Notes under the pieces: generated by a model | What the model was told of the DNA's origin: nothing | The model's database searches: none | What the model saw: the letters and a program-made list of their open reading frames with translations, nothing else | Program-made: the position numbers and the translations under genes | Part shown: positions 6,261-8,486 of the stretch, one piece after another | How positions within the stretch are numbered: position 1 is the stretch's first letter | Layout: each line of letters opens with the position of its first letter | Assembly: GCA_038843675.1 (NCBI GenBank) | Contig: JAWBRV010000004.1 | Location: forward strand, 20,442-84,441 | Origin: Candidatus Bathyarchaeia archaeon | GTDB taxonomy: Archaea; Thermoproteota; Bathyarchaeia; 40CM-2-53-6; CALIRQ01 | Reading direction: 5' to 3' | Length of the DNA stretch: 64,000 nucleotides

Positions 6261-8486
6261 ATGCCGAGGTTCAAAACCGTCGCCGATATCCTGAGGATCG
6301 CCAAGGATAAGGACCAGATCCGAAAGGCGGATGGGCCCTGAGGGCCCACCGGCCCGGGAGATATAGGCATAATCGCCCACGTCGATCATGGAAAGACGAC
6401 GATGAGCGATTCCCTCTTGGCCTCCTCGGGATTGCTATCCCCGACGGTTGCCGGGACAGCGCTGGCGCTGGATTATATGGAGGAGGAGCAGAAGAGGCAG
6501 ATGACGATAAAGGCCGCCAACGTCAGCCTATATCACGAGATGGATGGGAAGCCCTACCTGATAAATCTGATAGATACGCCCGGCCACGTTGATTTCTCGG
6601 GCAGGGTGACGAGGTCCCTCAGGGCCATAGACGGCGCCGTGGTGGTGATCGATGCCGTCGAGGAGGTCATGGTGCAGACGGAAACTGTGACGAGGCAGGC
6701 CCTTGAGGAGAGGGTCAGGCCCGTCCTTTATATAAACAAAATAGATAGGCTGATAAAGGAGCTGAAGCTGACGCCGATCCAGATCCAGGAGAAGATAGGG
6801 AGGATAATAAGCGATTTCAACAACCTCATAAACCTCTACGCCGAGCCGGAGTTCAAGGAGAAATGGAAGGTCAGCTTCACGACGAACACTGTGGCCATGG
6901 GCGCCGCAAAGGATGGATGGGGCTTCACGTCCGAGACGGCCCAAAGGGCGGGCATAAAGTTCTCCGACGTCGTCGATGCCTATGAGAACAACAAGGTCGA
7001 TGAGCTGAAGAAGAAGGTCCCGCTCCATGAGGCGGTCCTGAACATGGTCGTCGATGCCATGCCGCCGCCTCATGTGGCGCAGAAATATAGGATCCAGAAG
7101 ATATGGCGCGGGGATATAAACAGCGAGGTTGGCCAAGCGATGATGAACTGCGACGACAACGGCCCGGCGGTCATGAGCGTTTCGAACATAGTGGTGGATC
7201 CGCATGCGGGCATAGTCGCCACTGGGAGGCTCTTCTCCGGGACCCTACACGAGGGCGATCAGGTATATTTGATAGGGGCCAAGACGCAGGCTAGGATCCA
7301 GCAAGTTTGCATTTATATGGGGCCGCATAGGGAGATCGTCGGATCCCTAACGGCCGGCAACATACCAGCCCTGTTGGGTTTGGAGGCGGCGAGGGCCGGG
7401 GAGACTATATCGACGATCAGGGATATTGTGCCCTTCGAGGCCGTCAAATATGTGACGGAGCCCGTGGTGACGATAGCGGTCGAGCCGAAGCACAGCCGGG
7501 ACCTCCCGAAGCTCGTCGACGTCCTCAAGAAGCTCTCGATAGAGGATCCCAACTTGGTGACGACGATAAACGAGGAAACGGGGGAGTATCTAATATCGGG
7601 CATGGGGACTCTGCATCTGGAGATAGCGACGACGCTCATCCAGAAGACGGGTCTAGAGATAGTGACCTCGAAGCCCATAGTGATCTATAGGGAGAGCGTC
7701 AGGGGCCGAGCCGGGCCATTCGAGGGCAAATCCCCCAACAAGCACAACAGGATCTACATAAGCGTTGAGCCCCTCGATGAGGAGATAATCGATATGATCA
7801 GGACGGGCAAGATAAACGAGTACATGGATCGCCACGAGATGGCCAAAGTACTCAGGGAAAAGGGCTGGCCGACGGAGGAGGCAAGGGGCGTTTGGAGCGT
7901 TGACGAGGGCGGCAACATGCTGATAGATTTGACGAAGGGGGCCCAATACCTTCACGAGGCGAAGGACATGATCATCTCCGGATATAGGTGGGGCATAAAG
8001 GAGGGCCCCATAGCCTATGAACGGGTCAGGGGCTTGAAGGTCATCATAAACGACGTCCAGCTCCACGAGGACCCAGTCCACAGGGGCCCGGCCCAAATAA
8101 TGCCCATGACGCGAAGGGCGCTCTTCGCCGCGATCCTATCGGCGGACCCATGCCTCATGGAGCCGATACAGAAGATAACGGTGAAAATACCGCCGGAGCT
8201 CATGGGCGAGGTGACGAGCATAATAAGCCAGAAGAGGGGGAAGGTCGTATCGGTCGAGCAGAAGGGCCATCTGGTCTACGTGATCGGGGAAATTCCAACG
8301 GCGGAGACGTTCGACCTATCCGAGGTCATGAGGAGCGCCACGGCCGGAAGGGCCTTCTGGGGCCTTGAGTTCCTGAGATGGGCTCCGGTCCCGGCATCGC
8401 TCTTCAACGGCATAGTCCAAGAGATAAGGAAGAGGAAGGGGTTGCCCCCGGAGCCGCCGACGCCGAAGGATTTCATGGAGATGTGA
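6261..8486 (+). CDS. fusA: Elongation factor 2 (aEF-2), interrupted by an in-frame TGA at 6339-6341
   Basis: ATG 6261 ([26 protein letters not shown]) is in frame with the G1 motif [13 protein letters not shown] at 6363-6401. The ORF track only starts at 6402, which would delete the P-loop. Confidence 0.8.

Follow-up and report, generated by a model that had tools for sequence, protein, structure and literature searches.

The gene for archaeal elongation factor 2 (aEF-2) in the stretch of Bathyarchaeia DNA analysed here (64,000 nucleotides of contig JAWBRV010000004.1, called the window below) is very probably interrupted, 64 nucleotides (nt) after its start codon, by a 36-nt bulge-helix-bulge (BHB) intron that would be excised from the mRNA. 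The anatomy of the BHB motif, its conservation and covariation in relatives, the logic of the reading frame, the intron-less counterparts of the gene and a second BHB substrate in the window were all observed. Within the unprocessed RNA, exon 1 would pair through its UCCG with CGGG of the intron, and the bulges AAA (6323-6325) and AGA (6359-6361) would flank the resulting helix. By the established mechanism for BHB introns, each bulge would be cut behind its second base by the tRNA-splicing endonuclease EndA; ligation of the exons, and probably circularisation of the intron, would fall to an RtcB-type ligase. The mature mRNA would be read as Asn across the junction CGA-A|AT-ATA, and the TGA inside the intron would never be read. 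Translation of unspliced RNA would halt at this stop and give a peptide of 26 residues.

Anatomy of the interrupted gene

The aEF-2 frame opens at ATG 6261-6263 and meets an in-frame TGA at 6339-6341, as read from the sequence. This TGA forms the 3-nt loop of a perfect hairpin, GGGCCC (6333-6338) with GGGCCC (6342-6347). The features of the locus are listed below; the relatives mentioned there are 46 distinct intron-bearing sequences (mainly from Bathyarchaeia, plus genome L080), aligned as A1, on which all covariation counts were made.

6204..6211, + strand: candidate TATA-like element ATATAAAA upstream of the EF-2 start, from sequence reading
6250-6254, + strand: AGGTG, possible Shine-Dalgarno-like site, from sequence reading
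6261..6324, + strand: aEF-2 exon 1, codons 1-21 and the first base of codon 22; the peptide is kept in intron-bearing relatives
6325..6360, + strand: predicted BHB intron of 36 nt, AGGCGGAUGGGCCCUGAGGGCCCACCGGCCCGGGAG; 51.6 bits with the covariance model, its sole match in the window
6319..6322, + strand: 5' strand (UCCG) of the central 4-bp helix H, within Ile-Arg codons; pairs with 6355-6358
6355..6358, + strand: 3' strand (CGGG) of helix H, with a G.U pair to U6319; from pairing and covariation
6323..6325, + strand: bulge 1, AA|A, with predicted 5' cleavage after A6324; geometry as in the tRNA-Gly intron of the window and consistent in the 46 sequences
6359..6361, + strand: bulge 2, AG|A, with predicted 3' cleavage after G6360; geometry as in the tRNA-Gly intron of the window
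6326..6330, + strand: 5' strand of the intron-side helix h' (GGC, then GG); pairs with 6352-6354 and 6349-6350
6349..6354, + strand: 3' strand of helix h'; GGC 6326-6328 pairs with GCC 6352-6354
6333..6347, + strand: distal intron hairpin GGGCCC-UGA-GGGCCC, which extends h'; its loop, UGA, is the in-frame stop (from the sequence)
6361..8486, + strand: aEF-2 exon 2, from AT of codon 22 through the stop codon; the spliced product has 729 amino acids (aa)

Removal of the 36 nt joins CGA-A to AT-ATA, which restores an Asn codon and the canonical N-terminal motif of aEF-2 in a 729-aa protein. The boundaries predicted by the BHB rule are exactly those that restore the canonical sequence, with the join ...CAGAUCCGAA|AUAUAGGCAU... 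in the window. We compared the spliced N-terminus with the solved aEF-2 structures 8hl1 and 5h7k (...RIRNIGIAAHIDHGKTT) and found no gap across the junction. In intron-less relatives the exon 1 peptide runs unbroken into the rest of EF-2. At 6319-6361, two 3-nt bulges on opposite strands are parted by a helix of 4 bp. The intron-side helix that closes the bulge, for which at least 2 bp are expected, consists of GGC/GCC and the distal hairpin, and it covaries in relatives. Excision at the bulges leaves an intact reading frame in the window and in all 46 distinct sequences. When the BHB was enforced, the fold of 6311-6373 had a free energy of -24.1 kcal/mol, within 0.5 kcal/mol of the unconstrained minimum (-24.6).

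As a control for the BHB geometry we used the sole tRNA of the window, in which the places of splicing are known on other grounds. This tRNA-Gly(CCC) gene (11097-11188, + strand, with encoded CCA) carries a 14-nt BHB intron at the canonical position (11137-11150), with helix H CUCC/GGAG and bulges CA|U and CC|A, the same geometry as in the EF-2 intron. ARAGORN reads the gene with an impossible anticodon, 'ccca', and excision of the 14 nt by the BHB rule gives a clean tRNA-Gly(CCC). BHB substrates thus exist in the source genome, and the machinery to splice them is needed there. The EF-2 intron shares with archaeal tRNA introns of this type its 4-bp helix, its pair of 3-nt bulges, the predicted cut behind the second base of each bulge and its size range. 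In tRNA introns, however, the anticodon stem serves as the exon-side helix (canonical hBHBh' or hBH), whereas the EF-2 motif has a single exon-side closing pair and h' carries the structure (HBh'). An intein and a group I or group II intron were ruled out by the 36-nt size, the in-frame stop and an Rfam scan of the window that returned nothing but the tRNA.

The initial annotation had placed the start of EF-2 at ATG 6261, and this holds, as the exon 1 peptide is homologous to the N-termini of intron-less and solved EF-2 proteins. Its description of a TGA centred in a perfect hairpin at 6333-6347 was likewise confirmed from the sequence, and the segment is indeed an insertion relative to canonical aEF-2, since intron-less relatives have a single Asn codon in its place. 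Two of its measures needed correction. The extra segment, put at about 10 codons, is exactly 36 nt (6325-6360), giving 13 codons where relatives have one; and the TATA-like element lies about 50 nt before the ATG, not 40. By itself the palindrome is nothing unusual in a window that has 58% G+C and in which GGGCCC occurs 67 times; it is the conserved structure surrounding it that goes beyond chance. The sole other copy of the whole palindrome in the window, GGGCCCNNNGGGCCC at 644 (644-658), lies inside a DHH-family gene.

Recurrence in relatives and competing explanations

The source organism is a member of the Bathyarchaeia, and its best EF-2 match is 96% identical (L001). We fetched the DNA of 80 species-representative genomes at the EF-2 locus. 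An insert of 25-44 nt was found at the identical position in 47 of them, the intron assignment of L058 and L078 being corrected by eye. In another 25 there is no intron and the frame continues unbroken through RN(I/A/M)G; the others comprise six with an intein in the P-loop (the upstream part being out of range), one with a different intron and one cut by a contig end. Every intron-bearing case follows the same rule, in which CGA-A is joined to AT-(A/T)T(N)-GG to give R-N-(I/M/F)-G. In L001, despite the 96% identity of its protein, the intron is 44 nt long and different in sequence, with the same helices. On a neighbour-joining tree of EF-2 proteins the intron falls into two coherent clades, and the intron-less L004, which sits inside one of them, is best read as a precise loss.

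Such recurrence bears on the possibility that the stop is a sequencing or assembly error, or that the gene is a decaying pseudogene. A stop codon inside an essential gene would fit such an artefact. The same codon is, however, interrupted in Nitrosocaldus and in 47 genomes that were assembled independently, the identical 694-aa truncated product of the window gene is present in other public assemblies, and both exons are clearly conserved at the protein level. We therefore give the artefact very little credence.

Insert length bears on two translational explanations. The length of 35 of the 46 distinct inserts is not divisible by three, which leaves no explanation in which the segment is translated. 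If the UGA were read through or recoded, as selenocysteine or otherwise, EF-2 would carry a 12-residue insertion just before the P-loop (KADGPxGPTGPGD replacing N). The window insert, taken by itself, would allow this, its length being a multiple of three (36 nt) and its stop lying in a hairpin loop. The insert of L001, at 44 nt, would not, and some homologous inserts hold several stops; the insert is unconserved as protein and conserved as RNA structure. Nor is TGA reassigned in the window, because it terminates 32 of the 48 Pfam-supported open reading frames (ORFs), including those for prefoldin, the DHH protein and an ABC ATPase; it is the commonest stop codon there. The Rfam scan of the window returned no selenocysteine insertion sequence (SECIS) and no other recoding element. 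Readthrough or recoding is thus extremely improbable.

The second translational explanation is bypassing as in phage T4 gene 60, with take-off at the CCC before UGA and landing at a CCC 6 nt downstream. The string CCC-UGA-GGG-CCC does provide matched take-off and landing codons beside a stop in a hairpin. The product would still retain an 11-residue insert, though, and the match exists in the window only, the introns of relatives being unrelated in sequence and without matched codons. The lengths that are not multiples of three also argue against it, the frames being reconciled only by a splice within the split codon A|AT. Its probability appears close to negligible.

The results from relatives settle most of what the initial annotation had offered as explanations. 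It rightly saw a local anomaly, TGA being a genuine stop elsewhere in the window. A sequencing substitution does not survive the 47 assemblies and the identical truncated protein, and programmed readthrough or a recoding site fails on the insert lengths and on the in-frame stops found in all inserts. The SECIS search that it advised gave nothing by Rfam in the window. A sense codon in the corresponding segment of relatives, which would have spoken against it, was not found; the relatives too carry a stop there. Its 'small inserted element' came closest of the four options, but the element appears to be an intron at the RNA level, which had not been proposed.

We then counted covariation in A1. 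Helix H pairs in all 46 sequences (100% of cells), with one pair changing from C-G to U-A in four of them and another alternating between U-A and U-G. Helix h' covaries, with double changes in six of its seven pairs (for example AU22/GC18/GU4, CG27/UA10/UG5/GC3 and GC23/CG5/UA5). The whole structure scored 0.365, compared with 0.178 for column shuffles, none of 500 of which reached it, and at most 0.115 when partners were slid by 1-3 columns, relatedness being ignored in these controls. RNAalifold, given the alignment alone, returned the same two helices parted by a 3-nt bulge.

Codon choice at the junction is constrained as well. In intron-bearing genes AT[CT]-CGA-A|AT is invariant, whereas in intron-less genes the same Arg is encoded by AGG, AGA, CGC, CGA or CGT and the Asn by AAC or AAT. 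These synonymous sites are frozen only in the intron-bearing genes because there they must pair.

Absence of splicing was also considered, with exon 1 as a short upstream ORF and EF-2 initiated downstream, N-terminally truncated as it is annotated. Gene callers do give models of 692-707 aa, and lineages with NMGIIAH have an ATG just before the P-loop. The mechanical ORF list for the window starts EF-2 only at ATG 6402, past the P-loop, and a scan of the window sequence found no in-frame ATG, GTG or TTG between 6342 and 6401, so that the start between 6342 and 6362 that the initial annotation had named as a counter-indication is absent. A product from ATG 6402 would miss GHVDHGKTT. Moreover, translation from a downstream start would account neither for the homology of the exon 1 peptide to the N-terminus of intron-less and solved EF-2 proteins nor for the conservation of the BHB and the freezing of the synonymous sites. 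We consider it very unlikely.

The intron extends beyond Bathyarchaeia. A search with the EF-2 of L080, a genome labelled Thaumarchaeota, found the same truncation in Ca. Nitrosocaldus and Nitrosocaldaceae, including the RefSeq entry 'MULTISPECIES: elongation factor EF-2 [Candidatus Nitrosocaldus]'; the EF-2 of Nitrososphaeraceae is full-length. Ca. Nitrosocaldus sp. has a 39-nt intron with UUCG/CGAA as its central helix, a 10-bp h' and TAG as the sixth codon, and its predicted join is ...CAGAUUCGAA|AUUUUGGUGU.... In a metagenome-assembled genome of Nitrosocaldaceae the intron is 16 nt long (AGGUUUAACCCGAAUA), with TAA as the third codon. Both are out-of-sample for the covariance model built on A1, which matched them with 46.7 and 41.2 bits (E values of 3e-9 and 7e-8). 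In intron-less loci the model matched exon flanks only, with 15-26 bits.

Other elements interrupt the same short stretch of EF-2. L002 (JAVZFM010000049.1, Bathyarchaeia DRTY-6 bin 58) is without the intron at R|N and carries a different 42-nt BHB intron (locus positions 252-293), eight codons downstream between IIAH and VDHGKTT, with H GCCC/GGGC, bulges AU|A and AG|G, an 11-bp h' and an in-frame TAA. It represents a second, independent insertion of an intron. In L024, L035, L047, L048, L049 and L055 the P-loop is broken by an apparent intein (...NG(I/M)VVHN|TTM(S/T)DS), read from the C-extein side, as the N-extein side lies beyond the fetched DNA (upstream of locus position 1501). In Bathyarchaeia, intervening elements of three kinds thus occur within the first 40 codons of aEF-2.

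The in-frame stop and the case against excision

A stop in the frame of exon 1 was present in all 46 distinct introns, compared with 8 and 14 of 46 for the other two frames. In 42 of them it falls on the third intron codon, and in the others on the fourth, fifth or sixth. Most introns have TAG; TGA occurs in the window, L001, L038 and L080, and TAA in L058, L063, L073, L074 and L138. As both the identity and the position of the stop vary, selection would act on 'stop' rather than on a given RNA motif. The TGA of the window is this lineage's version of the conserved stop. Since every homologous intron has such a stop, in varying form and place, it was probably selected as a safeguard against translation of unspliced EF-2 mRNA.

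It may further be that the intron is an ancient, selectively kept gate on EF-2 synthesis, predating the split of Bathyarchaeia and Nitrososphaeria, with the stop as a fail-safe; we regard this as a tentative and rather unlikely proposal. If it were true, functional EF-2 would be made only after splicing by EndA and RtcB, elongation capacity would be coupled to the capacity for tRNA splicing and RNA repair, and the system would be an archaeal counterpart of regulated splicing of the HAC1/XBP1 type.

Several results weigh against the excision proposed here. The exon-side helix h, with at least two Watson-Crick pairs in the canonical hBHBh' motif, was not found. There is one closing pair, A6318-U6362 (AU in 43 and GC in two of the 46 distinct sequences), and the next pair is mismatched in 44 of 46, with 55% of cells pairing, no better than in the slid controls. 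Because helix h is essentially absent, the motif is of the relaxed HBh' type, a recognised variant that belongs to the broad BHB family and lies outside the canonical subclass. To our knowledge, relaxed motifs are cut only by broad-specificity endonucleases, the types able to do so being the (alpha-beta)2 and epsilon2 enzymes. A Pfam scan of 60 window ORFs found neither EndA nor RtcB, and no other split genes. The plain minimum free energy fold of 6300-6385 contains no BHB and is not significant (z = -1.35). The covariation score, in turn, holds without correction for kinship, since its controls ignore phylogenetic relatedness.

The spliced product was also sought. The exact 729-aa protein is absent from a collection of 15 billion proteins. 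When metagenome contigs were scanned for the spliced junction ATYCGAAATATNGGNATNATNGCNCAYGT, 55 matches came back, none of them near-identical to an intron-bearing locus; seven matched EF-2 loci that have no intron, six at about 72% and one at 96%, and the others were weak or unmatched.

Known counterparts, annotation and neighbouring genes

The mechanism is known; the gene, EF-2, and the lineages appear to be new. Watanabe (2002) and Yoshinari (2006) reportedly described the pre-mRNA intron of cbf5 in Crenarchaeota (Aeropyrum, Sulfolobus). In the literature searched, this crenarchaeal cbf5 intron is the sole endonuclease-spliced one described within an archaeal coding sequence (Yokobori 2009, PMC2738675). 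A study of 2020 reported a BHB intron in the 5' untranslated region (UTR) of Haloferax volcanii HVO_1309 and called cbf5 the only other example (PMC7714728), and a review of 2023 counted two spliced archaeal mRNAs, including the 5'-UTR case (PMC10485636). No report of an EF-2 intron was found in the open-access literature searched, and an earlier description may exist outside it; a paper on archaeal EF-2 evolution, with Bathyarchaeota included, does not mention the intron.

The cbf5 and EF-2 introns are alike in that both are short, lie in coding sequence, have a relaxed BHB-like motif at their junctions and are patchily distributed, with gains or losses. The cbf5 intron is removed by the tRNA-splicing endonuclease and ligase, and the same removal is predicted for the EF-2 intron. 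The genes and lineages differ, cbf5 being a pseudouridine synthase of Desulfurococcales and Sulfolobales and EF-2 an essential translation GTPase in Bathyarchaeia and Nitrosocaldales. Unlike the cbf5 intron, that of EF-2 lies 21 codons from the start, always has an early in-frame stop and is predicted from sequence. HVO_1309 likewise has a BHB substrate in an mRNA, outside tRNA and rRNA, and of similar size (46 nt), but its intron lies in the untranslated leader, leaves the frame uninterrupted and was demonstrated by circular RNA sequencing and in vitro cleavage (PMC7714728). The HAC1/XBP1 introns (Ire1 with tRNA ligase or RtcB) are also short mRNA introns that are spliced independently of the spliceosome by a structure-recognising protein endonuclease and joined by a tRNA ligase, and there too the unspliced mRNA yields no functional protein. 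They differ in the use of Ire1 and of twin stem-loops and in being a proven stress-regulated switch, whereas regulation of EF-2 is speculative.

The intron appears from these comparisons to be conserved across Bathyarchaeia and Nitrosocaldales and to have been missed by annotation pipelines. About 100 of the 120 closest public EF-2 proteins are gene calls truncated at the intron site, and only 17 are full-length with QIRN[IVLM]GIIAH. The truncated calls start at MSDSLL, at a second site or in an odd leader such as LVLRPEYIGIIAH. Public models (JGI, PGAP/RefSeq, ENA) have 692-695 aa from MSDSLL without the P-loop, have 703-707 aa, some of them from MGIIAH, or read in from the intron. The affected protein records are P0176, P0179, P0123-P0129 and about 100 of P0001-P0120. 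Hundreds of EF-2 models would thus be without their first 22-35 residues, many of them without the P-loop, and as EF-2 is a standard phylogenetic marker, the truncation affects marker-gene sets and completeness estimates. An intron in the coding sequence of an essential translation factor, conserved with covariation in two archaeal classes, would mean that mRNA splicing by protein enzymes is more widespread in Thermoproteota than thought. Nitrosocaldus enrichment cultures would offer a tractable system for the study of splicing under coupled transcription and translation, and of the conserved in-frame stop.

Two other regions of the window drew our attention. At 25520-30192 (+ strand), two consecutive pairs of a PALP enzyme and a ThiF-type E1 are encoded; a JAB-domain protein lies 8 kb downstream (38019-38423, + strand), and genes for a cysteine desulfurase and NifU are found at 31448-34402. 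The cluster may have to do with the chemistry of sulfur carriers or ubiquitin-like modifiers. At 38598-39450 (+ strand), a 130-aa ORF covers only positions 1-49 of the 67 in DUF438 and has a hemerythrin-like tail; the next ORF, of 151 aa, has no family. Immediately downstream of the two comes a full-length DUF438-hemerythrin-PAS gene (39942-41192, + strand), of which the region 38598-39450 may be a decayed or rearranged paralogue.

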